A DNA stretch of 64,000 nt from a bacterium (GCA_023230585.1 JALNXB010000003.1:22060-86059), one strand, 5' to 3'. Shown: positions 395-61,420, numbered from the stretch's first letter. A program made the numbers and translations. Notes: generated by a model not told the origin, from the sequence alone.

Positions 395-660
395 AGAACT
401 TGTTTCAGGATCTATAATTTACCTCACATTGGTAATAGACGCAACGTAAAAAACGAGATTCCGGATCAAGTCCGGAATGACAAACAAGGGGGAATTCTCA
501 TCTCTTGTCCTTGCCTGCTAACAGCCCCTCCTCCTACGCTAAAATACAAGCTTCGGCGGACAAGCCTCATCCCATTAACCTCTCTGCAAACACCTAAGGA
601 TTACCTATACCTATAAGTCCCAAGGGTAGAGGGGAAAAAAGGGTAGTGAGTGAATGAACA
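395..660. repeat. Modular intergenic repeat, copy R1 (modules A, B, E)
   Basis: Contains the hairpin module aaaaacgagattccggatcaagtccggaatgacaaacaaggggg (inverted repeat attccgga/tccggaat), the module cctacgctaaaatacaagcttcggcggacaagcctcatcccattaacc, and cccaagggtagagg. The same modules recur at about 3540, 31800 (reverse complement), 49405, 60030 and 61340. Confidence 0.7.
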
Positions 661-758
661 CCACATACGTTTCTCTTTTATGCCTTTATCTTTATGAGCA
701 TTGTTTTTTGCACAACCTTTTCAACTCTATATTTAATTTCAAAAATTTAAGAATAACA

Positions 759-1895
759 TTAAATGTAGTCGGTTGGCCAAACAAAAATCTTAAAAGGAAG
801 AAAACTTCTTAGCAGGTTAAATACTTTTGAGTTTATATTAGAAGGAGCCCAGAAGGTAGAACCAAACAGTAGTCTTACCATATCATTTTCATTTAAAAAT
901 ATCTCATTTTTACCTTTACCTTCTTTGACAGAAACAATACCATCTGTTTTAGAAACAGTAACAGATTCCCTGCCTTTTATTGTAAAGGTTATCTCTTCTC
1001 CGTCAGGGAAACAGGCATCTGTTTGTCGTATAAAAAGGTTTAAGGTTTCTTTAAGGTCTATTATTTTTAACATTAAAAAAGTATGTTTTATATTCCAGGC
1101 AGAAGAAATATCAAGTAGATTTTTAGGAACTTCGTTTAAGGAAGGAAAAGGTAATGTGAAAGCAGATAAACTGAACCTTTCACTAAGATATTTCAAAATA
1201 CCGAGCAATAGTTCTGGGTTACCTCCAAACTCAAGGATATTTCCAGCACCAGAAGATTCGGTTGAAGGTAGAATCAGATAAGCAAACTCTTGATTATGAA
1301 AAGCGTAGTACGTAGCAGAACCTCTCCTGCTAGAAATATCAATAAATTCTTTCTTATTGCGTTCTCTTTTGTAGTTATTTGAATTGAAAGTCCTTATCAT
1401 CTCGTTCAAAGCAGGTTCTTCATAAAAAAACCTCTCTGTTTCTACTGATTTTATTCCAAACTTATTTAATCCTCGAGATTTGATCGACAATTCTACGCAA
1501 GTACCACAATTCTCATAACCAAAAAAACCGTACCTATGTCTATCTCCCCATAGAATAGATATCGGCATTTTTTTGCTATCCATCAACCTAAAAGACTCTT
1601 CTAAAAGTTTGGACATATACCCTTTACCTCTATGAGAATACAGGGTAGAAACGCTACCAATACCACCACTTTCTATTGTTACACCGTTCTGGTTGAGAGT
1701 TATAGGGAATACCCTTAAAAATGCTACTATACGGTTCTCCTCACTTATTAAAAGAGAGTTATCAAATTCTGTGTTTTCTTTTTGCCAAACCTCGAGCCAA
1801 CCTTCCTTAAAAGCCCCAGCAGAATGTCCATAAACCTCTTCAAGGAACTTTTGTAACTCTTCATATTGACAAGGTTTTGCTCTCTCTATTCTCAT
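759..1895 (-). CDS. GNAT-family N-acetyltransferase, Eis-like (GNAT domain plus C-terminal SCP2-like region)
   Basis: The ORF-track protein contains ...SVSTLYSHRGKGYMSKLLEESF..., a GNAT acetyl-CoA binding motif. Its ~380 aa length matches Eis-type enzymes. The likely true start is the internal MRIERAK Met (ATG at 1893-1895), preceded by ggaggagagg. The longer track ORF extends into the upstream repeat. Confidence 0.6.
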   Translation of the reverse strand: MRIERAKPCQYEELQKFLEEVYGHSAGAFKEGWLEVWQKENTEFDNSLLISEENRIVAFLRVFPITLNQNGVTIESGGIGSVSTLYSHRGKGYMSKLLEESFRLMDSKKMPISILWGDRHRYGFFGYENCGTCVELSIKSRGLNKFGIKSVETERFFYEEPALNEMIRTFNSNNYKRERNKKEFIDISSRRGSATYYAFHNQEFAYLILPSTESSGAGNILEFGGNPELLLGILKYLSERFSLSAFTLPFPSLNEVPKNLLDISSAWNIKHTFLMLKIIDLKETLNLFIRQTDACFPDGEEITFTIKGRESVTVSKTDGIVSVKEGKGKNEIFLNENDMVRLLFGSTFWAPSNINSKVFNLLRSFLPFKIFVWPTDYI

Positions 1896-1924
1896 TTTTC
1901 CTCTCCTCCAATAATTTGCTTCTA

Positions 1925-2110
1925 CTTCCTTCCCATTCCTTTTTCGTCGTTGCTTGTCATTGCGAGCCGAGTTTTGGCGTGGCAATTCCCCTCACAAATA
2001 CTATCGGGACAAGCCCTCGGGGGTACTCGGGATAAACTCATCTTTTATCCTTAAACTCGCAAAGACGGCAACAAGACGAAGACCCGACCTTCGTGATTAT
2101 TCCATACTGT
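1925..2110. repeat. Modular intergenic repeat, copy R2
   Basis: Contains gtcattgcgagccgagttttggcgtggcaat (module C in inverse orientation), gggacaagccctcgggggtactcgggataaa (module D) and ctcgcaaagacgg. Module D recurs at 58650, 60030, 50530 and 31965 (reverse complement). Confidence 0.6.
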
Positions 2111-2146
2111 TTTTACCTTCTCATTGTTTTTTGTACAACTAATAAT

Positions 2147-3460
2147 TTAAAAGTTCATCTGTAACTGCCATCTAAAAAATAGAGCGTTATCTCTGTCTGA
2201 AGCATAAAAATTTCCCGGCTTGAAATATTCAAGTAACATTAGACCATCTATATTTTTGTTAAACTTATGAAACAATTGTACCTGTCCCAGATGTCCTCTC
2301 TCTTTGCCTGTTCCAAAAAAGACTGCAGGCGCAGGGTTGTCGTTTGCCCTTAAATAATTGTAAGCAAGACAAAAACCTGTTTTATCTGTTATCTTCATAT
2401 CAGTTTTCGCTCGCCATATCTGCAAGTTTGTCCAATACCCAACCTCGTTCCTTTCTATAACTGAATGGAACACGTACAGTTCACTTAACCAGGGCCATTT
2501 TGAAAAGAGTGGGTTCCACCCTTTATCTTTATCTCCTGCATAAGGGTTACCATCGCCTGAAAGATAAGCATAACCAATATCAAGGGTAGGTGAAAGTTTT
2601 GCTTCTGTAAAAGCTCTTTTTAAGAAAATATAGCCACCTAAACCGCTCCTATCTCTGTTATCATCGTATTCACCAAACTGGTACGCAAGTTCGCCCCTTA
2701 AACTCCAAGGAGCAAAATTATAGACAGCCCTATTTCCAACAGTGTTAAGTTTAAGTTTTTCTATATAATTACCTGCTCTTGTATGAGCATCTTCAGTTTT
2801 ATGTATATAGTATGGTTCAACAGAGAGGTTATCATCTACCTTAAATTTACCGTAAAGAATAACTGCTCTTTCATCCATTTTAGGGTATATAATGTTTCTA
2901 TCTTGGTCGTTTATTAAAGGAAGGTATTCATCTTGATAAGTGTTCTGAGTGTATATAATATCAAGCGAGTTTTTTTCATCAAACCTTAGGGTAGCCTTTG
3001 CTGCGTTAAAATATAAAGACCTACCTCCATCGGAAGGAGTTCCATCCATTATTAAGAACCCTTCACCGTGGGTCATAAGAAAATCTTGTCGCCCTAACCT
3101 CAAATCGACAGGCATCCCAAAAGCGTTTTTAACATCAAGGTATAAGTTATCAAAAAATATTTCTTGATCTTTCAATTCTTTCCCACCCGACATCTGCCCG
3201 GTTGTACTCAAGTAATACTTAGGTTCTGTTGTAAGTTTTACAAACATATTCACATCATCAGAAAAATTCCATTTGCCCCAAACACTTGCTTTAAGACGAA
3301 AATAATTGTCATCACGCATTATATTGGCTTTATTAAAGTCAAACACATTCTCTACGCACTCTTGTCTGAGTCTTAAATAAAAACCGTAATCAAATACTCC
3401 GTCCGCAAAAACTGTGATAGAAAAACTCAAAAATACCAGAAGCAATTTAACTTTTCTCAT
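2147..3460 (-). CDS. Outer-membrane beta-barrel protein (alginate-export/porin-like), signal peptide
   Basis: N-terminal signal peptide MRKVKLLLVFLSFSITVFA. Composition is rich in Tyr/Gly/Asn/Asp with alternating amphipathic strands. The C-terminal residue is aromatic (ends ...WQLQMNF), the classic OMP beta-barrel signature. Confidence 0.5.
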   Translation of the reverse strand: MRKVKLLLVFLSFSITVFADGVFDYGFYLRLRQECVENVFDFNKANIMRDDNYFRLKASVWGKWNFSDDVNMFVKLTTEPKYYLSTTGQMSGGKELKDQEIFFDNLYLDVKNAFGMPVDLRLGRQDFLMTHGEGFLIMDGTPSDGGRSLYFNAAKATLRFDEKNSLDIIYTQNTYQDEYLPLINDQDRNIIYPKMDERAVILYGKFKVDDNLSVEPYYIHKTEDAHTRAGNYIEKLKLNTVGNRAVYNFAPWSLRGELAYQFGEYDDNRDRSGLGGYIFLKRAFTEAKLSPTLDIGYAYLSGDGNPYAGDKDKGWNPLFSKWPWLSELYVFHSVIERNEVGYWTNLQIWRAKTDMKITDKTGFCLAYNYLRANDNPAPAVFFGTGKERGHLGQVQLFHKFNKNIDGLMLLEYFKPGNFYASDRDNALFFRWQLQMNF

Positions 3461-3539
3461 TATTTCCCCTTTTTATAATAATGTTTTACCAAATTTGGAT
3501 ATTTACCCACTTTTACTTTTTCCTTTACATCCTATTTTG

Positions 3540-3775
3540 TCACCTCTATAGCGGTAGTGAAGACAAGATTCCGAAGCAAGTCCGGAATGACATACAAGGG
3601 GTAAAAGCACAAAGCCCCTCCACCTACGCTAAAATGCAAGCTTCGGCGGATAAACCTCATCCCATTAATCTCTTTGCAGACCCCTGAGGGCTCTCTATCC
3701 CAAGTACCTCAAAGGGGAGAAGGTAAAAAAGGGAAGGTGTATGCGCCGTAGTCCCAGAGTGAGTAGACACCCCAT
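3540..3775. repeat. Modular intergenic repeat, copy R3
   Basis: Contains tagcggtagtgaagacaagattccgaagcaagtccggaatgacatacaagggg (a variant of module A) and cctacgctaaaatgcaagcttcggcggataaacctcatcccattaatctctttgcagacc (module B), plus cccaagtacctcaaaggggagaagg. It is co-linear with copy R1. Confidence 0.7.
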
Positions 3776-3791
3776 ACTTTTTTACCTCTTT

Positions 3792-4217
3792 TTAGACATT
3801 AAAATTTTCAACACTTCTATAATTATTCTTCTTTAAAATATCTTCCGCTTTTTCTATATCTGTTGAAGCGACCTTAAGAATAAGGGCGGCTTTAACACCT
3901 TCATCCATTATAAATCCATAGGCGTCTTCTATGTTGATACCCTCATCCTCAAGAATTTTGGCAACCTTATGGAACGCCCCAACCTTATCGGGCATCTCCA
4001 CCACGACAACTTCTTGGAATGAAACAAGAAAATTTTCTTCTTTTAAAATAGCAAACGCTTTATCATTATCATCGGTTATCAATTTTATAATCCCAAAACT
4101 TCCGCTATCGGCTATTGTCATAGCCTTCATATTTATTTTGGATTTTTCAAGTATACCAGTTATTTTATTTATTTTACCAGGTTTATTTTCTACAAAAATA
4201 GAAATCTGTTTACCCAT
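3792..4217 (-). CDS. ACT-domain protein (tandem ACT domains)
   Basis: 141 aa. MGKQISIFVENKPGKINKITGILEKSKINMKA... follows the ACT beta-alpha-beta-beta-alpha-beta pattern, with a second ACT-like half. It lies immediately downstream of a paaK-like gene, the common paaK-ACT pairing. Confidence 0.6.
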   Translation of the reverse strand: MGKQISIFVENKPGKINKITGILEKSKINMKAMTIADSGSFGIIKLITDDNDKAFAILKEENFLVSFQEVVVVEMPDKVGAFHKVAKILEDEGINIEDAYGFIMDEGVKAALILKVASTDIEKAEDILKKNNYRSVENFNV

Positions 4218-14439: not shown

Positions 14440-14520
14440 CTACTTTGTCAACATCTATTGAGCGGTAGTAAAAACGAGATTGCCACGTCAAGAAGCGCTC
14501 GCAAAGAGAGACCTGACATA
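14440..14520. repeat. Modular intergenic repeat, copy R4 (module C)
   Basis: ctattgagcggtagtaaaaacgagattgccacgtcaagaagcgctcgcaaagagagacc shares its leader with copy R3 (tagcggtagt.aa.ac.agatt) and its cgctcgcaaaga core with the copies at 60190 and 2060. Confidence 0.55.
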
Positions 14521-34630: not shown

Positions 34631-34692
34631 CTAGCTCCGACTACTGGACTTTGTCCGAACCGTAGAGAAATTGATAAAATGACATAAGCTGT

Positions 34693-36259: not shown

Positions 36260-36388
36260 TTGGTTTTTTTCAAATATCAAAAGATGAGGCTTCTTATCAC
36301 AATTTAAGCATTTTTCTAACTTCAAAAGAAATAAAAAACTTTCGCAAAATATTCTAAAATTTTTTTATGATGGTCAATGTTATCGTTT

Positions 36389-37768: not shown

Positions 37769-37773
37769 AAATT

Positions 37774-41287: not shown

Positions 41288-44200
41288 AATTTTTGATTTT
41301 CAATAGCAACAATAATTTCTTTAGTTAAATTCTTTTGTTGGAATTTCTCTCTTTCAAGATAATCAGCACCAAGTTTATCTTTCAAAGCATAGATTTCTTT
41401 GAGAGATTGGTTAAGTTGTTTTTCTGTGCTGCTTTCAAAGTTGGCTATCCTTCGCAATGTATAATCCGGCAATGTGCCATAATCGGTAATATCTTCAAGC
41501 AGTACTTTTAAGAAATTTTTTACCAGTTGTATTTCTTCTGTATGGTTTCTATATATAAGTGTCTTAAGGTTGTTCTTGGCTTGTTCTTCCAAACTTCGTT
41601 CAGTTGGCGGTCCTACTCTGTGATCCCTGAAGTTTTTTATACTTTCATAAGCACTCCAAAACTTTGCTCCGAGTTCTAACGGTTCTTCGTCAGGTTTACA
41701 CAGAATTTTATTGTAGGATTCTTCAAAAGTTGCCTGAAAAAAGGTATCTTTCTCTTCCTGCTTGTATATGGTTCCATGAATATACAGTCTGCCTTTTTTA
41801 AGAAAGACCAATAGTTCATCTGTATCAGCTTTTTTTGCCACTTTTATACGTGGAGGGAAAGTTTCCAAAGCAGCAATTAGACCTGGATTTTCTTTTTTTA
41901 TTCTTATAAACTCTTTTAAAGCCTTTGTATAAAAACTTTCTTCTTCCAGTTTGTCGGGATTTTGTTGCATTTTGTTATATAATTTGGCAGGAGACGGTTC
42001 TTCGTCAATAGCAAATATTTTAGAATCTTCACCGAGAGTATTATGAATCAAAAACATTTTATTGCTGGCAATCTCCCTTGCTTGTACCAATTCTGCCCCC
42101 TGTTCAGTAGGAAAGAAGTTGACGATAAAAAGTTTGTCAAACACTTTTTTACTTATTCGGTTGATACGTCCCAACCGTTGAATAATGCGAACAGGATTCC
42201 ATGGAATATCATAATTGATGACAATACCAGAACGGTTTAGGTTAAAACCTTCTGAAATTTTATCTGAAGATAACAAGATATCAAAATCATCTTTCTGTTC
42301 AGAGAAGGAAGCGTCAAAATTTGTGTTTATTGCAGATAGGTTTTTTGCTGTCAGGTCACCAGCAATAACCAGCAACCTATCGCCAAAGACTTTTTTAATA
42401 TGTGGTTCAAGATATTTCACTGTATCAAGATATTCGGAAAAGATAACAATTTTTCTGTTGGGCTCTTTTTTTAGTTGAGATTCAAGGTTTTTAATCAAAC
42501 AAGATGTCTTGGGATCATTTCTGACCAGATTAAATTTATTCAGAGAATCAAGAATTTCATTGAAAAGCTTCAGGTCAGATTTTATGTCTTCTATAAATTC
42601 ATCTCTATACTTAAAGTCAGCCAGTTTATAAACTTTATGGTTTTTAGGATACTCGCCTGCGTTGATTTTTTTCGTATATTCGTCCAGATGTTCTTCAATC
42701 TCTTCTGGTTCTTTGTCGTATATTCGTTCAAGCAAACTTCTATCCAGTATATATTTGCCTGTTCGCTCAATGAATGTTAAGACTGATTCAGCAATACGTT
42801 TGAAGTTTTTAAGACTTTGTTCAAAGGAGCCGAACGAACTTTCAAATCTTTTTACCAGCAACCGGCGCATAAAATCGTATAGATTACGTTGGGAATAAAA
42901 TTCAAAATTTTCTTTATCAGACAGTTTTTCTCCCACAATTTTTTCTTTTGCCGTTTCGTATTCAAAAGGCCTGTAAATCGCTCCCTTAAACATTCCGCCG
43001 TTATCAGGGTCGCCAAAGTATAATTTGATTACATTGTCATAAAGAACAGATTGTTCCTTTGTCAGTTCAAAGAACCATTCTTTAGGGTCGGCAACCTTAG
43101 ACAGATTTTTTACTTCTTTGTTATAATCTGGGTTTTCTTCCAAATCTAAACGATTGCGTCGAATAGTTACGGGTTCTATAACATCTCGTATCTGTTTTGC
43201 CAGATATTTTGAACGTCTTGCTACTTTTTCCAAACCAGAGACAACATCAAATTTTTCTCCAAAAAATGTTTTGTAATCACTATGTGCTTTACTACGTTTT
43301 TGCTGGTTTGTTGCATTCCAGTGTTTCTTGATATAACCGAGTCGGTCAAAAGAACCTTTGAAAGACTTGAAGCGATCAACAAGACTGTTTTCCATGGTTA
43401 TTGATGATTTCTTTGGAGTGATAAATAGTTTGAGAAGTGATAAAATGTCACCTGGGCGGTTGTTGAACGGAGTAGCAGTAAGAAGCATTACTAATTTGTT
43501 ACGACAGATATTTTTTAAATATTCATAACTCTCCGTATCTTGGTTTCTGAACCGATGTGCTTCGTCAACTATAACAACCTCTACATCTTTGGTTTTCTTT
43601 ACAAATTCCTGAAGTTTTTCCAAATCACCGAGAGACCATACCTCCCAGTCATATAAACCAAATTGCTCTTTATACATATTCCAGCCGGAATCTTTTTTTC
43701 TGGGGTCTCCCATAATACCGGGCGGGCAGATTATTACTCCTCTTTTCCGCAATTCTTTGGCAACGGAACAAGCAATAATAGTTTTACCCAGCCCTACAAC
43801 GTCAGCAAGAATAACACCATTGTTGTTTTCTATTATTGCTAATGCTTGGCGAATAGCATCCAATTGATATTGATAAGGTATATAGCCGTTGTCTTCGAGA
43901 GTTTTGATAAGAGATTGCCCAATTTCTCTTTTTTCAAAAGAATCAAGGTATATTTTCAGAATAAGAACAAACGCTTCAAATGGAGTGATTTTTTTGACTA
44001 GGGTTTCTTTTTCAACAAGTTCTATCAATCTTTTCTTAAGATCTGTATTTTCGGTAATTTTGACCGCTTCGTTCCATAAGGTATCATAGTATTCTTCAGC
44101 ACTTTCAAAACCGTAATCGCTGATTTCAACGTTAAACTCTTCTTGAGTAGTAAGCCCTAAACCTGTAAGGTTACTGCTACCGGTGATGAAGAGATTTTGG

Positions 44201-44649
44201 CGTCCTACCTGCTCATCCTGCAATTTGAATATGTATAGTTTCGCATGGTTAGGATGGAAGGTCTTTCTTATAATGAGCCGATTACTTTTTATAAGGTCCA
44301 TAAAAAACTTGACTTGTATGTAAAATTCTTTGGTGTCAAACTTTTCAGTGTTAATGGATTTTTTTATGGATTCAAAAAACCTTTGGCTTATTTCTTCATT
44401 AGATAAACGACCGCTGTGATCATCTAAATCAGCATACTCAACCAATTGAAAATTTAATTTATCAACATTGAGACCAACCAGGACTTTAAGTATTACTTTG
44501 GGGTTTTGCTTGAGTTCAGAGCAAAGTTCCCTTATACCAGAGAAATAAAAAAAACCGACCAAAAATTTTAATTCATCACTTTTGCTTATCAGTTTAACCA
44601 GTCGTTTTTTTAGGTTTTCTGCACCACTATTGGTTATGAAATTTTTCAT
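41284..44649 (-). CDS. PLD-family nuclease domain fused to SNF2-family (SF2) helicase/ATPase
   Basis: 1121 aa. The N-terminus has a single PLD HKD-type motif HAKLYIF...ITGSSNLT (HxK...GSxN). The SNF2 motifs are motif I ADVVGLGKTIIA, motif II VVIVDEAHRFRN (DEAH), motif III LLTATPFNN and motif VI IIQRLGRINR. The 3' end overlaps the MTase start (translational coupling). Confidence 0.75.
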   Translation of the reverse strand: MKNFITNSGAENLKKRLVKLISKSDELKFLVGFFYFSGIRELCSELKQNPKVILKVLVGLNVDKLNFQLVEYADLDDHSGRLSNEEISQRFFESIKKSINTEKFDTKEFYIQVKFFMDLIKSNRLIIRKTFHPNHAKLYIFKLQDEQVGRQNLFITGSSNLTGLGLTTQEEFNVEISDYGFESAEEYYDTLWNEAVKITENTDLKKRLIELVEKETLVKKITPFEAFVLILKIYLDSFEKREIGQSLIKTLEDNGYIPYQYQLDAIRQALAIIENNNGVILADVVGLGKTIIACSVAKELRKRGVIICPPGIMGDPRKKDSGWNMYKEQFGLYDWEVWSLGDLEKLQEFVKKTKDVEVVIVDEAHRFRNQDTESYEYLKNICRNKLVMLLTATPFNNRPGDILSLLKLFITPKKSSITMENSLVDRFKSFKGSFDRLGYIKKHWNATNQQKRSKAHSDYKTFFGEKFDVVSGLEKVARRSKYLAKQIRDVIEPVTIRRNRLDLEENPDYNKEVKNLSKVADPKEWFFELTKEQSVLYDNVIKLYFGDPDNGGMFKGAIYRPFEYETAKEKIVGEKLSDKENFEFYSQRNLYDFMRRLLVKRFESSFGSFEQSLKNFKRIAESVLTFIERTGKYILDRSLLERIYDKEPEEIEEHLDEYTKKINAGEYPKNHKVYKLADFKYRDEFIEDIKSDLKLFNEILDSLNKFNLVRNDPKTSCLIKNLESQLKKEPNRKIVIFSEYLDTVKYLEPHIKKVFGDRLLVIAGDLTAKNLSAINTNFDASFSEQKDDFDILLSSDKISEGFNLNRSGIVINYDIPWNPVRIIQRLGRINRISKKVFDKLFIVNFFPTEQGAELVQAREIASNKMFLIHNTLGEDSKIFAIDEEPSPAKLYNKMQQNPDKLEEESFYTKALKEFIRIKKENPGLIAALETFPPRIKVAKKADTDELLVFLKKGRLYIHGTIYKQEEKDTFFQATFEESYNKILCKPDEEPLELGAKFWSAYESIKNFRDHRVGPPTERSLEEQAKNNLKTLIYRNHTEEIQLVKNFLKVLLEDITDYGTLPDYTLRRIANFESSTEKQLNQSLKEIYALKDKLGADYLEREKFQQKNLTKEIIVAIENQKL

Positions 44650-44855
44650 ATAGATTTATTGTGCAATTCTTGCGTTAAAAATAAAAGCAGAGTTGCAAGC
44701 ATCTCATAGTTGGGTGTCCATACCTGCTTGAATGTGTACAGCATTGTATCTATTTTACACAATATTTAGAAATGTGTCTATTAAAAGCATATTCATTATA
44801 CTTTTAGAGAAAGAGAGTCAATACAAATATATCGCAAGTATTGTCTGTTAAGTGT

Positions 44856-45104
44856 TTATGTGCTAAGGGAAGAAATGTTTGAAATGATTTTATCGGCGAA
44901 TTTAAGTGCAGTAGTTCCTTGTGCTTCTATAGCTACAGACCAACTTTTATAATAATCTGCTTTTACTCGCAAATCTTTGAGACGATCTAAATTTATTCCG
45001 ACCTCTCTTTTCTTTATATCACTACTTAAACAAAATTCATTACTAACAAATAAATGGCTATTTATTGAGGGAATAATTTCGCCTTCTTTATCTTTTCCTC
45101 TCAA
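44856..45104 (-). CDS. Small hypothetical protein (82 aa), possibly a HEPN-like fragment
   Basis: Isolated ORF in a 600-bp gap between the defense genes and the GH42-like gene. It carries LRVKADYY, weakly resembling R-x4-H/Y HEPN-type motifs. Too short for a confident call. Confidence 0.2.
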   Translation of the reverse strand: MRGKDKEGEIIPSINSHLFVSNEFCLSSDIKKREVGINLDRLKDLRVKADYYKSWSVAIEAQGTTALKFADKIISNISSLST

Positions 45105-45267
45105 GGGTAGAAAGCAAAAGTGTAAAGGAGAAGGATTTTTTAGTACTTGAATAGGGAATACGGAAGCGTTTTATTTTTCTTAGTTTCTTTATAAACTATT
45201 AGTATCTTTTAGTAATAAATAGTAATATAATAGATATCATTCCAGCCCGTTAAACAATGGAGGGAAA

Positions 45268-48147: not shown

Positions 48148-49402
48148 AAGTAAAAAAGGAGTTTTTATGAACAATGTTTATAGAACAAGTATATTGTTGG
48201 TTTTTTTATTTATTATTTCTTCTTTTTCTTTTATATACTCAGAAAATATTGTTAAAACAGGGTTAGATGTAATAAAAGAGAACCCTCCAGATATAATTAA
48301 GGGCAAAAATATTGGTCTTATAACAAACTATACTGCAGTTGATAATGAGATGAGGAGTGCTTTAGATGTAATATCTAACTTAAAGGATGTAAATATAGTG
48401 GCTGCCTATTCTCCAGAACACGGGTTTACTGGGGGCAAAATGGGGCATATAGATAACTCAGAAGACAAAAAAAGAGGTGTTCGAATTTTCAGTCTACACG
48501 GTAATACAAAAATCCCAACAAAAGAGATGTTAAAAGGTGTTGACCTTCTGATATTTGATATTCAAGATATAGGGGTACGTTCATACACATATATTTCAAC
48601 TATGAAAAACTGTATGGTGGCAGCAACCAAAAATAGAATACCCTTTGTTGTTCTTGACAGACCTAATCCGCTCGGAGGAATTGTGGTTGACGGTCCTGTT
48701 TTAGATATGTCGTTTGCTTCTTTTATAGGAGCCGGTCCCATAGCTTATGTTCATGGGATGACAATTGGAGAGATCGCTCTTTTTTTTAATACAGAACTTA
48801 AGATAAAATGTAACCTAACAGTTGTTCCTATGGTAGGGTGGGAAAGAAGAATGGATTGGCAAGATACAAAACTCAACTGGATACCTACCTCACCTCATAT
48901 ACCAGAAAACGATACCCCTTTATTTTACGCTACAACAGGAATTTTGGGAGAAACTCCTCTTGTAAATATAGGTGTGGGGTATACCCTGCCATTTAAAATA
49001 GTAGGTGCGCCTTGGATAGACGCTGAATTAATTACTCAAAAACTTAATGAGAAAAACCTACCGGGAGTATCTTTTCATCCTTTCTACTTTACTCCTTTTT
49101 ATCATCATTATAATAAAAGTTTTTGTCAAGGGTTCAAGATAATTGTCACCAATAAAGAGGTTTTTATGCCTGTATCTACCGGTTATCATATAATCGAAAC
49201 TCTTATAAAACTATATCCTGAGGATTTTAAGATAGGACAACTTTCAAACAATATTGTTAAGATGTTTAACCAAGCAAATGGAACAGACAGGGTGTTAAAA
49301 ATGTTGCTGAATAAAGATTCAGCTGAGATGATAATAAAAAGTTATGAACCGAAACTTACCAGTTTTAAAGAAAAACGGAAAAAGTATCTTTTATATCAAT
49401 GA
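48140..49402 (+). CDS. namZ: DUF1343-family exo-beta-N-acetylmuramidase (NamZ-like)
   Basis: GLDVIKENPPDIIKGKNIGLITNYTAVDNEMRSALDVI...AAYSPEHGFTG...RIFSLHGNTKIPTKEMLKGVDLLIFDIQDIGVRSYTYISTM is a near-textbook DUF1343/NamZ signature. The N-terminal signal/TM segment suggests export. The start overlaps the upstream gene by 8 nt. Confidence 0.75.
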   Translation: MNRSKKGVFMNNVYRTSILLVFLFIISSFSFIYSENIVKTGLDVIKENPPDIIKGKNIGLITNYTAVDNEMRSALDVISNLKDVNIVAAYSPEHGFTGGKMGHIDNSEDKKRGVRIFSLHGNTKIPTKEMLKGVDLLIFDIQDIGVRSYTYISTMKNCMVAATKNRIPFVVLDRPNPLGGIVVDGPVLDMSFASFIGAGPIAYVHGMTIGEIALFFNTELKIKCNLTVVPMVGWERRMDWQDTKLNWIPTSPHIPENDTPLFYATTGILGETPLVNIGVGYTLPFKIVGAPWIDAELITQKLNEKNLPGVSFHPFYFTPFYHHYNKSFCQGFKIIVTNKEVFMPVSTGYHIIETLIKLYPEDFKIGQLSNNIVKMFNQANGTDRVLKMLLNKDSAEMIIKSYEPKLTSFKEKRKKYLLYQ

Positions 49403-49404
49403 GA

Positions 49405-49700
49405 TTACCCTTGCTTCCCATTCCTTTTCCGCCTTCGGCGAGATTGCCACGCCAAAAGCCCTACTGCGCCAAGGTATACCTGCCGAAGCTTGTGTTTTAG
49501 CGTAGGTTGGCTTCGGCGGATAAAACTCGCAAGACAAACTACAAAAGCAAAATACCCCCTCATCCTTGATCCTTCTCCCCCAAGAGGAGAAGGCAAAAAC
49601 TCCTTATTTCTGCAAACCTCGAAGGTTTCCTCAGCTTAAAAACGAGATTCCGGATCAAGTCCGGAATGACAAGCAGGGGGGATCTTTGTCTTTATTTTAT
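49405..49700. repeat. Modular intergenic repeat, copy R6 (modules C, B-variant, E, A)
   Basis: ttccttttccgccttcggcgagattgccacgcc (module C) is identical to 60160-60190. gcgtaggttggcttcggcggataaaactcgcaagacaaactacaaaagc is a B-like module. aaaaacgagattccggatcaagtccggaatgacaagcagggggg is the module A hairpin. Confidence 0.7.
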
Positions 49701-49712
49701 TTTCAATCTATT

Positions 49713-50270
49713 CTATTTTTCTTCTAAATTTATTAGCCATTCTCCGGTAATTTTAAGTATATCCAATTTCATACTTAGGTTCTGCCGACGAACCGCAACC
49801 ATATCCAGAACATTAAACCCGCATAGATACAACACCTTCTCCAAACTAAAAGTGCATGCAGCAGAACCGCCTCCTCCACCACCAGCAACACAGATACCAA
49901 TAGTCGGTTTATTGGTTATTCCCTCTTTACCTTTATCGTTCATTGTTGTACGTCTAAGCCGGTCGAGAAAAGACTTTAAACTTTCACTTAGGTCGCTAAA
50001 ATACACAGGTGTAGCAAAAACAACTATATCAGATTTCTTGATTTTATCAACCAATAAAGCAAAATCATCATCTATTATACATCTTCCCTCTGAACGACAA
50101 ATACCCCAACCATTATCATTACATTGTCTACATCTTTCAATCTTTTGTTTTGGTAGAAACACTTCTTCTGTTTGGTCTGTTTTAGTTTTTACGCCTTTTA
50201 GTAAAGCTTGAACTGCTCTGGCTGTCTGACCTTCTGGATTACGGCTACCAAGAATTGTTAAGACCTTCAT
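49713..50270 (-). CDS. Flavodoxin-fold NAD(P)H-dependent FMN reductase / iron-sulfur flavoprotein (Isf-like)
   Basis: MKVLTILGSRNPEGQT...IVVFATPVYFSDLSESLKSFLDR is the NADPH-dependent FMN reductase fold. The compact Cys cluster CRQCNDNGWGICRSEGRC resembles the Isf CX2CX2-7CX5C [4Fe-4S] motif. The C-terminal ~25 codons extend into repeat R6 and may not be translated. Confidence 0.55.
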   Translation of the reverse strand: MKVLTILGSRNPEGQTARAVQALLKGVKTKTDQTEEVFLPKQKIERCRQCNDNGWGICRSEGRCIIDDDFALLVDKIKKSDIVVFATPVYFSDLSESLKSFLDRLRRTTMNDKGKEGITNKPTIGICVAGGGGGGSAACTFSLEKVLYLCGFNVLDMVAVRRQNLSMKLDILKITGEWLINLEEK

Positions 50271-50499: not shown

Positions 50500-50585
50500 A
50501 GACCAAAAGCCCCCCTCACCTTACACCCTCTCTTCCCTCGGGGGTTCTCGGGACAAGACCCAAGGGTAGAGAAGAGTATGGGAGA
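50500..50585. repeat. Modular intergenic repeat, copy R7 (modules D, E), in the lexA leader
   Basis: cctcgggggttctcgggacaagacccaagggtagagaagag carries module D (cf. 2010-2040, 60030-60058) and module E (cf. 615-640). Confidence 0.55.
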
Positions 50586-50608: not shown

Positions 50609-51211
50609 ATGAGTTTAACAGAGAAACAACAAAAGATACTTGATTACATTAAAAAACAGATTCAAGAGAACGGCTACCCGCCCACAATACGAGAGATAGG
50701 TGAAAAATTCTCTTTATCTTCAACAGGTAGCGTTAGGGACCATTTAAAAGTTCTTAGTGACAAAAAATATATAGAACGTCTTCCTGGAATCTCACGAGGT
50801 ATTCGGTTACAGGATAAACCTTTACAATCTTCTTCTACTTCTATCCCCGTTGTAGGAAGGATTACTGCTGGCAAACCAGAACTTGCCATAGAAGATATTG
50901 AGGGCACAATATGCATAGATAAAAAACTTGTTGATAAAGGTACAACTTTTGCTTTAAAGGTTAAGGGAGATAGTATGATTGACGCAGGTATACAAGAAGG
51001 TGACTATGTAATTGTTAAACCTCAAAATGTATGTGAGCAGGGTGAAATTATTATTGCTTTGATTGAAGGTGAAGCCACAGTAAAAAGGTTCAAACGTAAA
51101 GGTAACAACCTTTTTTTACAACCAGCCAACCCTTCTTATGAACCAATAAAAATTGATGAAAGGGTCAAAATTATAGGTAAAGTAGTCGGTCTTATAAGGT
51201 ATTACAACTAA
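50609..51211 (+). CDS. lexA: LexA repressor (SOS response)
   Basis: The N-terminal winged-HTH is ...LTEKQQKILDYIKKQIQENGYPPTIREIGEKF. The C-terminal S24 peptidase domain carries the catalytic Ser in VKGDSMIDAGI and the Lys in GEATVKRFKRKGN. The autocleavage region PVVGRITAGKP holds the AG cleavage bond. Confidence 0.85.
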   Translation: MSLTEKQQKILDYIKKQIQENGYPPTIREIGEKFSLSSTGSVRDHLKVLSDKKYIERLPGISRGIRLQDKPLQSSSTSIPVVGRITAGKPELAIEDIEGTICIDKKLVDKGTTFALKVKGDSMIDAGIQEGDYVIVKPQNVCEQGEIIIALIEGEATVKRFKRKGNNLFLQPANPSYEPIKIDERVKIIGKVVGLIRYYN

Positions 51212-51226
51212 AAGGATAACCATAAA

Positions 51227-51475
51227 ATGATGGAAGAAATTATGGAAGAAATAGAGATAGAGGCACACTTTAGTAGCAACAAAATTAAACCAAAATGGTT
51301 CCTATGGAACAATAGAAAATATTATATAGATAAAGTAAACTATATCTGGCACAATAAAGACGGAGAAGAGGTTATCTACTATTTTTCAGTAGTTGTTGGT
51401 GCTAATCTTTATGAACTCTCTTTTTATACAAAAAAACTCAAATGGCTCTTAAGCAAGGTTTATATTGAGGGATAA
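51227..51475 (+). CDS. Small hypothetical protein co-transcribed between lexA and dinB
   Basis: 82-aa ORF with a good RBS spacing (aaaaggataacc). It abuts the dinB start. Family not recognised; YolD-like or other SOS accessory proteins are a possibility. Confidence 0.4.
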   Translation: MMEEIMEEIEIEAHFSSNKIKPKWFLWNNRKYYIDKVNYIWHNKDGEEVIYYFSVVVGANLYELSFYTKKLKWLLSKVYIEG

Positions 51476-51476
51476 A

Positions 51477-52700
51477 ATGGAACGGACTATTTTGCATATT
51501 GATATGGACGCTTACTTTGCTTCGGTTGAAGAGAAAAGCAACCCTTTTTTGAAAGGTAAACCTATAATAGTATCTGGTAACCCAGAAGCAAGGACTACTG
51601 TTTCCACAGCAAACTATATAGCAAGAGAGTATGGAATAAAAGCAGGGATGCCTTTAAGAGAAGCGTTAAGATTGTGCCCTAAGGCAGAGGTAGTGGTGGG
51701 TAATTCAGTTAAATATTTGAGCACAACTTCCAAACTCCTTAATATACTAAAAGATTTTACTCCTTATCTGGAAAGTTACTCCATAGATGAAGCGTTTTTG
51801 GATATAACCGGAACAAAAGAACTTTTTGGTGGTGCAGTGGAAACTGGTGTAAAAATCAAAAGCAGAATAAAAGAAGAGTTGGACTTGACTTGTTCTGTAG
51901 GTATAGCGCCCAATAAATTGCTGGCAAAACTTGCAAGTAACACAGTAAAACCTGACGGGCTTACCTGCATAAAAAAAGAAGATGTATCTGGTCTATTAAA
52001 AAATCTACCTATAGAAAAATTATGGGGTATTGGAGAAAATTTGACCTTCAAGTTAAACTGTCTTGGCATAAAAACCTGTAAAGAACTGGCTGATTATTCT
52101 ATGAAAAAACTGGTTTCCAAATTTGGGGTCCAAGGGTATATTTTGCATTGTATGGGTAAAGGAGAATATTCTTCTAAAGTTAAACCTTTTTCTCAAGAAG
52201 AAGAATATAAATCTATGGGACATTCTTATACATTGTTCAGAGATACTTCAAATATTCTTATGGTAGAATCTACCCTTTACAGGTTATGTGAGCAGGTTGG
52301 AAGAAGGTTAAGGAAAGACAAGTACCAAGGCAGAACAGTAACCTTGATTTTAAGGTTTCACGATTTTAATACATTGGTTAAACAACAAACCTTAAAGAAC
52401 CACATTAACGATAGTCGTATTATTTACAGAACAGCTACCTCAATTATGAGAACAATAAAAATAGATAAACCTGTGAGATTGATAGGGGTAAGTGTGTCTA
52501 ACCTAATAAGAAAGCAAAGCCAGATTTCAATCTTTGAAGAAGAAAAAAAGAGAGAAGAACTATTGTTTGCACTTGATAAAATCAACGATAAGTTTGGTGA
52601 GTTTACTGTTTCTCCAGGAGCTGTTTTAATGGAAAAAACTCTTAACAAAAAATATTCAATTAACCGCAGGTCTATTTTAAAGGACGATATAAAAAAATAG
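51477..52700 (+). CDS. dinB: DNA polymerase IV (Y-family translesion polymerase)
   Basis: MERTILHIDMDAYFASVEEK...KPIIV is the canonical DinB N-terminus with catalytic D/E residues. SIDEAFLDIT is motif III. 407 aa from the MERTIL start. Confidence 0.85.
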   Translation: MERTILHIDMDAYFASVEEKSNPFLKGKPIIVSGNPEARTTVSTANYIAREYGIKAGMPLREALRLCPKAEVVVGNSVKYLSTTSKLLNILKDFTPYLESYSIDEAFLDITGTKELFGGAVETGVKIKSRIKEELDLTCSVGIAPNKLLAKLASNTVKPDGLTCIKKEDVSGLLKNLPIEKLWGIGENLTFKLNCLGIKTCKELADYSMKKLVSKFGVQGYILHCMGKGEYSSKVKPFSQEEEYKSMGHSYTLFRDTSNILMVESTLYRLCEQVGRRLRKDKYQGRTVTLILRFHDFNTLVKQQTLKNHINDSRIIYRTATSIMRTIKIDKPVRLIGVSVSNLIRKQSQISIFEEEKKREELLFALDKINDKFGEFTVSPGAVLMEKTLNKKYSINRRSILKDDIKK

Positions 52701-52839
52701 GCACGTCAGGTTTCTCTTGCTTTATGAAAAATTGTTATATACCTTTACTCAGTACCTAAACTAAAAATATGTAAACATTTTTATTAGGCTGCTATTTCTT
52801 TAAAACAGTCTTTTTTTGCCCAATAGAAAATAGGTTATC

Positions 52840-54450
52840 TTATTTAAATTTTCTTAAAATTGTCCCACAACCTCCAACTACAAAAAAATGGTCGTTACCA
52901 TAAGAAACACCGTTAAGAGTAACCCTTGTTCCTGACTCTTTTGGTAACCAATTTGTTCCGTCAGAAGATACAATAGTTGTACCGTATTCCCCCGCTATAA
53001 CAAAAACATTGTTTCCGTAGGATATGGTCCGAAAAACCCTTTCTGTTCCTGATTCTTGTGGTAGCCAAACGATTCCGTTTTCGGAAGTTAATATTGTGCC
53101 TGCCCTGCCTACTGCAACAAATTTGCCATTACCATAAGCAATTCCAAATAGGGTTACTTTAATTCCTTCTTTTTGTTCTACCCAATTTATTCCGTCGGAA
53201 GAGACCACAGTTGTACCAGCAGAGGCAGCAATAAAAACATTATTGCCGTAACAAATACTAAAAATCCATCTTGAAATTTCTGATTTTCTTCTTGTCCAAT
53301 TTACTCCATCAGGAGAAGTGAAAATTGTGCCAAGTTCCCCTGCTGCAACAAATATGTTATTTCCATACGTAATACAGGTAAACAGATCATTTGTATTTAA
53401 GTTCTGCTTTGCCCAAGTTGTTCCATCTACAGAGGTAAGTACTGTACCTAACTCCCCTACCGCAACAAACATATTGCTACCATAAACAACACCGTTAAGA
53501 GATTTTTGTGTCCCTGAATATATCTCTTTCCAGCCATTCTCTGTGGAGGATAGTATTGTACCGTATTTTCCAACTGCTATAAATCTGTTTTTACCATAGG
53601 CAATACCATTAAGCCCGTTTCTACTTCCAGAATGTCGTTCTGTCCATTTTCTGCCTGTAGCAGAGCTTAAAATTATACCTCCCTCCCCTATTGCAATAAA
53701 CATTCCATTACCATAAGCAATTCCACAAAGTTTGTCCGTTGTATTTGAATGGTGTTTTGTCCATCTTGTTCCATTATAAGAATTCAAGATTACACCATTC
53801 CCACCAACTGCAGCAAATACGTTCTTTCCACGAACAATTCCACTAAGCCAAACATTTGTCTTTGAATTCTGCTCTCTCCAAATTATCCCATCGGTTGATA
53901 CTAAAATTGTTCCAGCAAAACCTGTAATAATAAAAACATTGTTTCCATAATCTATACCATCAAGAGGTTTTGTTGTCTTTGAATCTGCTTGTCTCCAGTT
54001 TATACCGTTAAGAGAAGTAAGTATTGTACCAGTCTCTCCTACTGCTATAAACATACCATTTCCGTATGTAATACCGCTTAGCCATTTTGTTGTATTTGAA
54101 CCTATTTCTCTCCAACTTACCCCATCAGGAGAGGTAAGTATTGTTCCTGCCCTACCTACTGCAACAAAGATTCCGTTACCATATACAACACCACTTAGCC
54201 ATTTTGTTGTCTTCGAGTCTGTTTGTCTCCAGTTTATTCCATTAGGAGAAGTAAGTATTGTACCGTTAGTTCCAACTACAACAAATATATTATTTCCCCA
54301 CGAAATATCATTAAGTTGGTTTGAGGTAGGCAATGGGTTTTCAAAATGGTAGTTTGTAGAATTTGTAGAAAAAGCTAAAGAAACATAAGAACCAATAAAA
54401 AAGAAGAGCAATATCTTTACAACCAAATAGGTTCTTCTTTTATTTCTCAT
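52840..54450 (-). CDS. Secreted beta-propeller-like protein built from ~12 tandem ~38-aa repeats
   Basis: Signal peptide. The repeats have consensus [ST]..DG[IV].W[RT].....T...L.GI.YGN..F[IV]AVG..GTIL[TS]S. Examples are GTILTSPDGVSWREIGSNTTKWLSGITYGNGMFIAVGETGTILTSLNGINWRQ. The pattern resembles Ycf48/BNR-like propeller blades. Confidence 0.5.
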   Translation of the reverse strand: MRNKRRTYLVVKILLFFFIGSYVSLAFSTNSTNYHFENPLPTSNQLNDISWGNNIFVVVGTNGTILTSPNGINWRQTDSKTTKWLSGVVYGNGIFVAVGRAGTILTSPDGVSWREIGSNTTKWLSGITYGNGMFIAVGETGTILTSLNGINWRQADSKTTKPLDGIDYGNNVFIITGFAGTILVSTDGIIWREQNSKTNVWLSGIVRGKNVFAAVGGNGVILNSYNGTRWTKHHSNTTDKLCGIAYGNGMFIAIGEGGIILSSATGRKWTERHSGSRNGLNGIAYGKNRFIAVGKYGTILSSTENGWKEIYSGTQKSLNGVVYGSNMFVAVGELGTVLTSVDGTTWAKQNLNTNDLFTCITYGNNIFVAAGELGTIFTSPDGVNWTRRKSEISRWIFSICYGNNVFIAASAGTTVVSSDGINWVEQKEGIKVTLFGIAYGNGKFVAVGRAGTILTSENGIVWLPQESGTERVFRTISYGNNVFVIAGEYGTTIVSSDGTNWLPKESGTRVTLNGVSYGNDHFFVVGGCGTILRKFK

Positions 54451-54468
54451 TTTAGTTTGTCTCCCTTT

Positions 54469-58649: not shown

Positions 58650-58700
58650 TTTCTCCCATTTATCCCGAGTACCCCCGAGGGGCTTATCCCGACAGTTTTT
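58650..58700. repeat. Modular intergenic repeat, copy R8 (module D)
   Basis: ttatcccgagtacccccgaggggcttatcccgac. Compare gtcccgagtacccccgagggataaaac at 60030 and gggacaagccctcgggggtactcgggataaa (reverse orientation) at 2010. Confidence 0.55.
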
Positions 58701-59935: not shown

Positions 59936-60029
59936 TTGTTTCTCTCCATATTATAAATGGTTCTACCAAATTCAACGCTTTTTGCTTGTCTTACGAGGAG
60001 CGACTTAGCTCAATGTTTCTGTGGGAACT

Positions 60030-60240
60030 TGTCCCGAGTACCCCCGAGGGATAAAACTTGTAAGGCAAACTACAAAAAAACGAGATTCCGGATCAAGTCT
60101 GGAATGACATATAAGGGGGTAACCCTCGTCTTTATCCTATACACTATTGTTTATTACCCTTCCTTTTCCGCCTTCGGCGAGATTGCCACGCTAAGAGGCG
60201 CTCGCAAAGACGGAATGGGGGTAACGTATAAAAACGAAAG
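60030..60240. repeat. Modular intergenic repeat, copy R9 (modules D, A, C)
   Basis: gtcccgagtacccccgaggg (D), aaaaacgagattccggatcaagtctggaatgacatataaggggg (A) and ccttccttttccgccttcggcgagattgccacgctaagaggcgctcgcaaagacgg (C). These are the same modules as copy R6 in a different order. Confidence 0.7.
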
Positions 60241-60267
60241 CGTAAAGCAAAAGCCCCACCACAGACG

Positions 60268-61113
60268 TTAAATTTTAAACAGGTTAGTGTCAGGAAGTAC
60301 TACCCAAGGTTTTCTCTGTCTAAAATCCAACTCAAACTTGTTTTTTATTCTGTTGTTTCTCTCAAGATAATCAGAATAACTTCTTATACATACCGCTGCC
60401 AATCTATCAGGTTTACCGGCGGGGTGAGAAGGGTTTGCCATTGCTCCATTTTTACAGGATGAACAAATATTGTAGTCAATTTCTGCTACAAGCATCTTCT
60501 TACCAGCAATAGTAATTTCTTTTTCCCCTATAAATGCTCCAAGCGGACAGAAGTTTTTAAATTCGCTCTCACGCGGGCAAATATCTTCAACAACTATAGG
60601 GTCAGGTTCAATCTCAGCATCAGTAAGAATCATCTGTATACGTTGACGAGGTCCAAATTCTGGTGTAACAAGAACCCCACAGTACCCTATCTCTCCGACT
60701 CCTGCCCTAACTGCTGCATCTTCAAAATCAAGAAGAACATTCGGCTTTAATCCCCCTTGTTTAACTGAAACACCCATTGTTGGAACTTCAGGCGGAATAT
60801 TAGGTAGAGGCACGGCTTCCCATCCATTATCCTCAAGAAACTCTGATACTGAGAACGTCGTTACGGCAGTAAACCTATTTTCAAGCCAATCTGCGCCGAA
60901 AAACAGGTAGTTAGTAAAATTGGTACCTTCTTCAACACCCCTCAAAGTCCCTCTTGTAATACGTCTACCGATAATTATTATAGATTTTGTTTCAGGGAAA
61001 ATTGAAGAAGGATGTTTTTCGGCAGGCAATTCTTTGAATCTTTCAATATTTGCTATACCTACAATATCTGCTCCTACCTTTCTTGCGTATTCTTTTAGTC
61101 TGTTTTTGTCCAT
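60268..61113 (-). CDS. QueG/reductive-dehalogenase-like Fe-S protein, shorter paralog
   Basis: MDKNRLKEYARKVGADIVGIANIERFKELPAEKHPSSIFPETKSIIIIGRRITRG is co-linear with 58880..59935 (about 50% identity over the N-terminal 150 aa). CSSCKNGA and CIRSY are Cys motifs. Confidence 0.4.
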   Translation of the reverse strand: MDKNRLKEYARKVGADIVGIANIERFKELPAEKHPSSIFPETKSIIIIGRRITRGTLRGVEEGTNFTNYLFFGADWLENRFTAVTTFSVSEFLEDNGWEAVPLPNIPPEVPTMGVSVKQGGLKPNVLLDFEDAAVRAGVGEIGYCGVLVTPEFGPRQRIQMILTDAEIEPDPIVVEDICPRESEFKNFCPLGAFIGEKEITIAGKKMLVAEIDYNICSSCKNGAMANPSHPAGKPDRLAAVCIRSYSDYLERNNRIKNKFELDFRQRKPWVVLPDTNLFKI

Positions 61114-61339
61114 TTTTGCTCCATTAACAAAGTTTAAATTGTTTTTTTATAGTAACAGAAAGAATTTGAGAAGATATTAATAAATAATATCTCACTTGAT
61201 AAAAATACTGTAGTTTACAGTTTATTTTTAGGTTAAACCTATTAAAACTTGATAGTTTTACTATTATATCACTATATATCGATTTATCAAAATGCGTAAC
61301 TCCTTATACAAATGGGTTTTATGGAAGGGCAAAGGAGAG

Positions 61340-61420
61340 GTGAAATCAGAAAAAGGAAAGAAGAAAAACGAGATTCCGGATCAAGTCCGGAATGACATAT
61401 AAGGGGGCAAAGGCAGAGAA
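61340..61420. repeat. Modular intergenic repeat, copy R10 (module A)
   Basis: aaaaacgagattccggatcaagtccggaatgacatataagggggcaaagg, identical in its core to the copies at 449, 49637 and 60078. Confidence 0.65.

Follow-up and report, generated by a model that had tools for sequence, protein, structure and literature searches.

What are the short repeats that occupy many of the gaps between genes in a 64,000-nt stretch of bacterial DNA (GCA_023230585.1, JALNXB010000003.1:22060-86059; the whole stretch is called the window below), and to which class of repeats do they belong? A sequence-only reading had described ten intergenic loci assembled from five recurring modules, A to E, in varying order and orientation, and had suggested a non-autonomous family resembling miniature inverted-repeat transposable elements (MITEs) or bacterial interspersed mosaic elements (BIMEs). 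We consider it probable that the modules form lineage-specific composite intergenic repeats built around hairpins of the CGTC/TGTC-tagged repetitive extragenic palindromes (CGTC-REPs), a class that also goes by the name of NTS/Ssn-related motifs. The repeats amount to a system like the BIMEs and the Neisseria intergenic mosaic elements (NIMEs), in a new phylum.

The window is part of the 110,982-nt ENA metagenome contig ERZ27247376 k141_575763, where the record position equals the window position plus 43,444. Its G+C content is 36%, and the named relatives of its proteins, about 50% identical, lie in metagenome-assembled genomes of Candidatus Omnitrophota/Omnitrophica. The host belongs to an uncultured, small-genome, Omnitrophota-like phylum. 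The genes of the window are ordinary chromosomal ones, including pyruvate:ferredoxin oxidoreductase, acyl-CoA ligases, V-type ATPase subunits, trmD/rplS, electron-transfer flavoprotein, prepilin-like proteins and a lexA-polymerase operon.

The sequences first reported were present at all ten loci. Self-BLAST of the window gave module-to-module matches with E values from 1e-8 to 1e-30, and a repeat search recovered the modules A, B, C and D together with a further one, X. Using DNA profiles (nhmmer) built from related contigs, 29 module copies were placed in the window; copies beyond those first listed were found at 45087-45120 and within the 7.8 kb upstream of the window. Modules are carried by 12 of the 40 intergenic gaps, including most of the gaps longer than 220 nt, and the carrier gaps have 34-46% G+C (29% where a single A copy stands alone) against 14-37% in module-free gaps. 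Strict sites of the form 'GTCAT + hairpin + C' occur five times in the window, where dinucleotide shuffles lead one to expect 0.28. The list of modules had to be revised in part: E turned out to be one arm of the X hairpin, B consists of two units (B1 and B2) that are separable by depth profile, and two modules had been missed, namely F (3733-3783, with a degenerate copy at 648-672) and G (389-446). The modules do create spurious open reading frames (ORFs), as had been noted, e.g. 59957-60271 (+) and the 5' extension of 759-1985.

Two sets of public sequences were used for comparison. The lineage contigs comprise at least 112 loci (718 kb, median G+C 36.6%) from public metagenomes, all matching an exact 30-nt lineage-specific pattern of module A, so that copy number is high, where a low one would have told against the first description; the matches listed come mostly from few samples, and many lie at contig ends. 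The other-phyla set covers 0.83 Mb around at least 120 genome loci with the core of module A, using one genome per species. Counts given below for the lineage and for other phyla refer to the matches listed in these two sets.

The core hairpin and its class

Read on the minus strand, module A is TGTC-ATTCCGGA-CTTGA-TCCGGAAT-CTCGTTTTT, i.e. an unpaired TGTC tag, an 8-bp stem opening with A-T and T-A, a 5-nt loop and a short tail. All five full copies in the window read TGTC-ATTCC... on that strand. The CGTC-REPs have a CGTC tag (often TGTC, with CCTC as a variant), stems of 8-9 bp, almost always with AT at the start, 4-5-nt loops and a tail of 3 nt, mostly CCA (Di Nocera 2013, BMC Genomics 14:522, PMC3733652). 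The class covers five phyla and includes dRS3 of Neisseria and RPE-4 and RPE-6 of Rickettsia. Its members are found mainly as dimers with the tags outside (HH), often heterodimers with spacers of 20-100 nt; they are intergenic, mostly between unidirectional or convergent ORFs and near the 3' end of the upstream ORF, and no linked transposase was found (PMC3733652). Module A is like them in its tag, in its stem (ATTCCGGA / TCCGGAAT, 8 bp starting with AT) and 5-nt loop (CTTGA), in its HH heterodimers, in its intergenic 3'-proximal sites and in having no transposase nearby.

The Neisseria element has been redefined as NTS (CGTCATTCCCGCGMAVGCGGGAATCYRG), with relatives in many phyla that are termed Ssn-related motifs (SRMs; Chenal 2025, Nat Commun 16:2388, PMC11893778). 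The flanks of module A, GTCATTCC...GGAATCY, are identical to those of NTS and, like the conserved non-palindromic 5' flank (CGTCAT) of an SRM, give the hairpin a direction; the inner stem alone differs. SsnA, a 94-aa single-domain GIY-YIG protein, binds the NTS hairpin as single-stranded DNA (ssDNA) and cleaves a single strand upstream of the hairpin; copies of the motif typically lie on either side of ssnA genes, and 19% of SRM-rich genomes are without a GIY-YIG (cd10448) gene (PMC11893778). Judged by its sequence, module A belongs to the CGTC-REP class, with which the NTS/Ssn-related motifs are equated here, and its core is already known, not new. The sequence-only reading had described the hairpin without recognising this pan-bacterial class, which is already in the literature.

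The core itself, GATTCCGGA-N(3-7)-TCCGGAATGAC, was found at at least 120 genome loci in more than 20 phyla, counting one genome per species. Hosts among the matches listed include Patescibacteria, Chloroflexota, Bacteroidota, Ignavibacteriota, Planctomycetota, Campylobacterota, Alpha-, Beta- and Gammaproteobacteria, Rickettsiales, Nitrospirota, Thermodesulfobacteriota, Actinomycetota, Spirochaetota and others, and the 25-nt core is also present in 12 viral contigs of IMG/VR. Beyond about 29 nt the flanks of these loci show no relationship, and 89 of 146 copies have the loop TCAAG. The tail in the lineage is CTC followed by GTTTTT, where the same hairpin in other phyla ends in CCA, CTA or CCG.

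Neighbouring GTCAT hairpins in the diverse genomes stand with their tags outside in 67 cases, inside in 14 and in tandem in 15; the dimer partner of A usually differs in its stem, and canonical NTS-type stems are found among the partners. The lineage contigs show 21 HH, 2 tags-inside (TT) and 5 tandem pairs with spacers of 16-50 nt, an arrangement characteristic of CGTC-REP dimers, and the window has its own A-G dimer at 389-490.

Small GIY-YIG genes were seen at three of the loci examined, and all three are bracketed by hairpins. The gene in locus L132 has GTCATTCTGGCTTGGCCAGAATC before it and GATTCTGGCCAAGCCAGAATGAC after it, and the one in L254 has CGTCATTCTGG...CCAGAATC before it and GATTCTGGACAAGCCAGAATGAC after it, in both cases with the tags outside; the two bracketing hairpins in L131 have the same orientation. 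As to their surroundings, which belong to other phyla, the L132 gene (PF01541, 1667-1999) lies between recA and recX, and the L254 gene (PF01541, 1501-1800) between recR and yqeY, an arrangement shared by 24 contigs. Since the L132 and L254 genes are bracketed by tags-outside hairpins, a tags-outside dimer looks like the same unit minus the gene, and such dimers may well be the gene-less form of a hairpin-GIY-YIG-hairpin unit.

Order and polarity of the composite unit

Alignment of full copies gave a unit of about 330 nt with the order stop codon-F-X-B2-B1-A-(35-45 nt)-G when read in the direction of the flanking genes. Module G is a second GTCAT hairpin (GTCATCCTGAACTTGTTTCAGGATC), and because it is inverted relative to A, the pair A-G is an HH heterodimer; in a DNA fold of A-G the tags pair with each other, which closes a branched structure. 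Module C forms a long hairpin (-35.5 kcal/mol, z = -5.5) with an imperfect hairpin as its core, flanked by A-like GTCWT...AATCTCG sequences. B1 lies between short inverted repeats and is found in both orientations.

The lineage contigs contain 71 copies of G, 56 of C, 55 of F, 44 of B1, about 41 of X, 32 of B2 and 20 of D, and the copies of a module are 82-91% identical (73% for D). The other-phyla set yielded the A core and three G cores only, with no B1, B2, C, D, X or F, and the F and B patterns had no match in IMG/VR. Within the DNA searched, B1, B2, C, D, X and F are found in this lineage only and are specific to it.

Orientation was counted between co-directional genes, with each orthologous site used once. 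At 47 sites the GTCAT strand of A is the sense strand, and at 8 it is antisense (p = 8e-8). G (20 sense, 3 antisense), F (14 and 1), X (21 and 5), C (15 and 4) and B2 (12 and 3) are likewise oriented mostly in the sense direction; B1 (11 and 8) and D (7 and 9) are unbiased. The A hairpin in other phyla (genome loci L015-L134) shows no strand preference relative to genes (28 vs 21) and is without the T-run that follows it in the lineage (loci L142-L253). This strong orientation bias is lineage-specific and new relative to the described class. The GC skew of the window follows the coding strand, and effects of replication and of transcription on repeat orientation are therefore inseparable by skew. 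Given the canonical order of the unit and its strong polarity, the 'varying order and orientation' of the first description was overstated.

The repeats are intergenic, for the most part between unidirectional or convergent genes, and lie near the 3' end of the upstream gene, which is the placement known from CGTC-REPs. F starts at a median of 32 nt after the stop codon, and at most 60 nt after it in 20 of 32 copies.

In the sense orientation an mRNA would carry the A hairpin followed by CUCGUUUUU. A simple terminator scan flags module A at 61393-61373 and 49667-49647. Among the roles first suggested, transcription termination alone is backed by sequence, through a terminator-like hairpin and T-run at two sites, but the signal is weak; module A may act as a terminator of the upstream transcript, and roles in mRNA stability or recombination are hypothetical.

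Strain variation and competing explanations

Synteny around an alginate-export-like gene is kept in relatives, and the two gaps that flank this gene differ. The gap between the ACT-domain gene and the alginate-export-like gene measures 331 nt in the window, 145 nt in a strain with 97% identity and 507 nt, with different repeats, in a 73% relative; the gap to the next gene measures 251 nt, 734 nt and 72 nt, respectively, and 53 nt in a 72% relative. Arrays of the window type are missing in the 72-73% relatives. Lineage contigs whose flanks are 92-98% identical show whole arrays deleted, replaced or extended, and the changes between close strains consist of deletion, replacement and inversion at short repeats. 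Several junctions fall directly after CATTCCGTCT, the tag of the C hairpin, after which at least two alternative continuations are seen in dozens of copies. The strain differences look like deletion or replacement, not transposition, and resemble the variability of NIMEs more than a cut-and-paste process.

The same region holds two Acetyltransf_9 paralogues that share a 50-nt leader (338-387 and 1895-1944, 92% identical). The 97%-related strain (L135, 6483-7236) has one Acetyltransf_9 copy after the alginate-export-like gene, which indicates a duplication or a loss inside the repeat-rich region.

On the most likely account of these composites, their dimers would be gene-less derivatives of the hairpin-GIY-YIG-hairpin unit that spread or recombine as hairpins of ssDNA, with a small GIY-YIG nuclease of the Ssn type, or some other unsampled enzyme, cutting them in trans. 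Hairpin derivatives would then spread and be reshuffled through ssDNA intermediates and local recombination, and selection would retain insertions just after stop codons, in the orientation where A gives a hairpin and a U-run that could end the upstream transcript.

Several observations weigh against this account. No link is known between the CGTC-REP hairpin class and the modules B, D, X and F, and the tail of A is CTC, not the usual CCA. The published SRM string, HGTCWYN(0-2)YYVSBRHN(0-5)WNVSBRGN(0-2)RNCYNB, has no match in the window, where both A and G fail it; the string likewise misses the hairpins that directly flank the GIY-YIG gene in L132 and is therefore narrower than the class, which lowers literal membership and not resemblance. 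With a profile of 116 Ssn-like proteins, GIY-YIG ORFs were detected neither in the window and about 8 kb of its flanks nor in the 718 kb of lineage contigs. Searches of the window and the lineage contigs by regular expression, by jackhmmer and with a second profile were negative as well, and a protein search with a GIY-YIG query returned relatives of the candidate phyla radiation type only, none of them named Omnitrophota, with no useful name from NCBIfam. At loci that are 92-98% identical we found no clean insertion against an empty site and no target-site duplication. Almost no compensatory change was seen by RNAalifold in the hairpins of C (24 copies) and X (32 copies); taken with the high identity of the copies, this agrees with spread or homogenisation in the recent past and offers no evidence that an RNA structure is under selection. 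Finally, the T-run of A is placed 4 nt past a modest stem (-8 to -12 kcal/mol), and the copy at 3561 is without one.

A possible but rather doubtful alternative is that the composite is mainly a functional cassette of the 3' untranslated region or an insulator, in which A is a terminator hairpin, X, C and F are stabilising hairpins, selection acts at gene ends and mobility is secondary. The orientation bias, strong in the lineage (47:8) and missing in other phyla (28:21), speaks for such a cassette, as do the abutment of F on stop codons, the terminator-like A with T-run at 61393 and 49667, and the same 3'-proximal placement of REPs reported by Di Nocera 2013 (PMC3733652). However, strains with 97% identity differ at one and the same site in whether they carry the cassette and in its composition, and the 72-73% relatives lack it, which makes it dispensable for the genes on either side. 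Further copies lie in divergent gaps and directly upstream of lexA, the hairpins show no covariation, and the U-run is offset from the stem and missing in some copies.

A bolder version, to which we give little credence, has a portable F-X-B-A-G cassette of about 330 nt, derived from a pan-bacterial CGTC-REP dimer, that lands or survives only just after stop codons in one orientation and serves as a mobile terminator or insulator, or as a recombination hotspot, without a resident Ssn nuclease. If true, this would imply an unknown enzyme or one supplied in trans, e.g. from a phage, and the repeats, with their defined polarity and grammar, would be a first among NIME-like systems outside Neisseria and Wolbachia.

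That the modules are a multi-copy structured small-RNA gene family, or a known riboswitch or other RNA motif, is unlikely, although the conserved order of the 330-nt unit, its several stable hairpins and its fixed polarity relative to transcription would suit such a family. Over the whole window tRNA-Arg was the only Rfam match at the gathering score; no other match appeared at E<=1 over three array regions, nor any at E<=1 in 300-3900 and 49380-49720, and none of the modules is thus explained by a known structured RNA. Furthermore, compensatory changes are almost nil, and modules are lost, inverted and swapped freely between strains. A tRNA-like or T-arm resemblance of the A loop was considered and dropped, as both ARAGORN and Rfam were negative. 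Readings as CRISPR or as integron attC sites were also dropped, given the irregular spacing and the lack of cas or intI among the annotated genes of the window.

BIMEs and the REPINs of E. coli and Pseudomonas carry a GTAG tag and a Y1 (HUH) transposase, the RAYT, and have proposed roles in termination and mRNA stability. The repeats studied here have much of this design in common, with tagged hairpins, inverted dimers, an intergenic position at gene 3' ends and mosaic clusters, but mobilisation by RAYT, an IS200-like Y1 transposase, is very unlikely: the tag is CGTC/TGTC and not GTAG, a search with IS200/RAYT seeds found no Y1 transposase in about 1.7 Mb of loci, and no transposase linked to CGTC-REPs was found by Di Nocera 2013 (PMC3733652). 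The BIME-like half of the original proposal nevertheless stands as a description, since the core hairpins are CGTC-tagged and of REP type, numerous, and different between close strains.

The MITE-like half lacks support. MITEs such as Correia elements, RUP and Nezha have terminal inverted repeats, target-site duplications and an origin in insertion sequences (ISs) of the DDE type; they share with the modules that they are short, numerous and intergenic and may affect transcription. The window does contain, adjoining one array, a DDE_Tnp_1 gene with perfect 21-bp terminal inverted repeats (IS at 32677-34630), but we regard movement of the modules by this or another DDE transposase as highly improbable. 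No module is related to the ends of the IS (CTAGCGTGAGTTTCCCACTTT), the modules are without terminal inverted repeats or target-site duplications, also at five strain-level indels, and no multi-copy transposase was seen in 0.8 Mb of lineage DNA, where clustering of all ORFs returned prepilin-like paralogues and repeat-derived pseudo-ORFs only.

Repeats do break assemblies, but an assembly artefact or a chimera of repeats can be dismissed with near certainty, as independent assemblies of other samples contain the same sequences: L002, a Logan assembly of the same strain, matches without a difference over 1666 nt (100% identity), and its ends fall exactly within modules C and B, and the ENA (L135) and JGI (L136) assemblies of the 97%-related strain have identical arrays.

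Arrays, neighbouring genes and significance

The first array of the window opens with the A-G dimer. G, its right half (389-446, +; nhmmer E=4e-20), is a degenerate CGTC-type hairpin (GTCATACAGAACTTGTTTCAGGATC, tag on the plus strand) with a spacer, and A (449-490, +; E=8e-16) has its TGTC-tagged hairpin on the minus strand, TGTC-ATTCCGGA-CTTGA-TCCGGAAT-CTCGTTTTTT. They are followed by B1 (524-557, +; E=2.5e-11, with boundaries from the depth profile) and B2 (558-591, +; E=1.4e-12), and by a stretch (620-672, +) in which a degenerate half of X, the earlier module E (cccaagggtagag), precedes the degenerate F at 648-672 (E=6e-4). A variant of C with an imperfect CGTC-type hairpin, GTCATTGCGAGCC...GGCAAT, lies at 1956-1986 (-; E=5e-4), and a profile match to D at 2014-2035 (-) is 100% complementary to 58659-58681. 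The next array starts with an A copy that has a mismatched stem and no T-run (3561-3600, +), placed by repeat search and profile. Profile matches to B1 (3614-3647, +) and B2 (3648-3681, +) come next, then a degenerate X/E half (3697-3722, +) recognised from the sequence and the alignment of full copies, and finally F (3733-3783, +; E=7e-20), whose end is 9 nt away from the stop codon (3792) of the ACT-domain gene. A C hairpin with the A-type flank AAAAACGAGATT is found at 14475-14507 (+; E=8e-9).

All modules of the array at 31819-32025 are on the minus strand. They are a diverged D (31819-31843, profile match), an A truncated in the loop (31873-31895, repeat search and profile), an X hairpin (31903-31946, repeat search and profile, E=3e-14), B2 (31952-31979, profile match), D (31972-32001, repeat search and profile) and the left arm of C (32001-32025, repeat search and profile, E=6e-3). 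The X-like copy at 45087-45120 (+) was found by repeat search and profile (E=3e-4). At 49417-49459 (+) a profile match covers the left part of a long C hairpin into which a B1 hairpin has been inserted; B1 itself is inverted (49482-49515, -; repeat search and profile). An X hairpin (49556-49599, +; profile match) and an A copy (49638-49679, +) complete this array, the latter lying 30 nt after the stop codon of an FMN-reductase gene and being terminator-like on the minus strand according to profile and terminator scan.

D together with an X/E half (50529-50575, -; sequence and profile) is situated about 35-80 nt upstream of the lexA start codon. Two D copies follow, at 58660-58682 (+; repeat search and profile) and 60027-60056 (+; profile match), the second of which is succeeded by A (60076-60117, +; repeat search and profile) and by the full-length C (60157-60215, +; E=3e-22), whose long hairpin has the folding energy given above. 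The last A copy (61364-61405, +), 26-30 nt after the stop codon of an M20 peptidase gene, is again terminator-like on the minus strand (profile and terminator scan).

A number of neighbouring features were recorded alongside the repeats. The IS at 32677-34630 is complete, with the DDE_Tnp_1 ORF at 32801-34546 (+), and adjoins tRNA-Arg(CCT) (31615-31689) as well as the array at 31819-32025. A stretch of low G+C (29-33%) at about 34000-44650 contains an Eco57I/MmeI-like type IIG restriction-modification gene (37946-41287, -) and a SNF2-family helicase gene (41285-44650, -), and is possibly a defence island gained by acquisition; two direct copies of a 54-nt repeat (34821-34874 and 37878-37931, 94% identical) enclose about 3 kb. 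The lexA gene belongs to an SOS-type operon (50610-52701, +) with an 82-aa ORF and a Y-family polymerase (IMS), and the D and X/E modules 35-80 nt upstream of the lexA start are at the expected location of the operator. A 536-aa ORF (52841-54451, -) contains about ten tandem 117-nt (39-aa) repeats, is without a Pfam match and adjoins a Pel9A-like beta-helix/PKD protein. A predicted nuclease of the UPF0102/YraN type (115 aa; 25540-25887, -) lies beside rplS and trmD as a conserved housekeeping neighbour, and no link to the repeats was seen.

Set beside the known systems, the repeats differ from the CGTC-REPs in that A ends in CTC and a T-run instead of CCA, that the Omnitrophota-like host is outside the five reported phyla, that the dimer is part of a fixed-order composite of about 330 nt with lineage-specific modules, and that there is a strong bias relative to transcription. 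With the NTS/SRM/SsnA system they have in common the flanks, the directional motif, the spread across phyla and, at the loci L131, L132 and L254 of other genomes, the hairpin-flanked GIY-YIG genes; they differ in the inner stem, in the lack of a literal SRM match and in the lack of an ssnA homologue in the lineage DNA searched. In the NIMEs of Neisseria, dRS3 hairpins flank RS elements of 50-150 bp, which form more than 100 families (Bentley 2007, PMC1797815). In both systems, intergenic arrays combine a CGTC-type hairpin with further repeat families and vary in number and length between strains at syntenic sites; the arrays of the window differ from NIMEs, a term defined for Neisseria, in being short (1-3 hairpins), in having a canonical module order and in not drawing on more than 100 RS families. 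Regular alternating arrays of the form (A-83 nt-C-13 nt) x3 were seen in L196 (2373-3980) and L246, and these come nearer to the NIME arrays of Neisseria than any array of the window does.

What is new is the host phylum, the fixed-order composite of about 330 nt with its lineage-specific modules, and the strong polarity confined to the lineage. The CGTC-REP/SRM class is hereby extended to an uncultured Omnitrophota-like phylum, with a core that is nearly letter-identical in more than 20 phyla and in viral contigs. The fixed order and the lineage-only bias offer a concrete test of the co-option of such hairpins as gene-end signals. In practice, the repeats break metagenome assemblies and create spurious ORFs (e.g. 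peptides with EIPDQVRND); binning and annotation improve once the repeats are recognised. Should there be a cognate Ssn nuclease, the A, G and C hairpins would offer new candidates for recognition sites in ssDNA tools.

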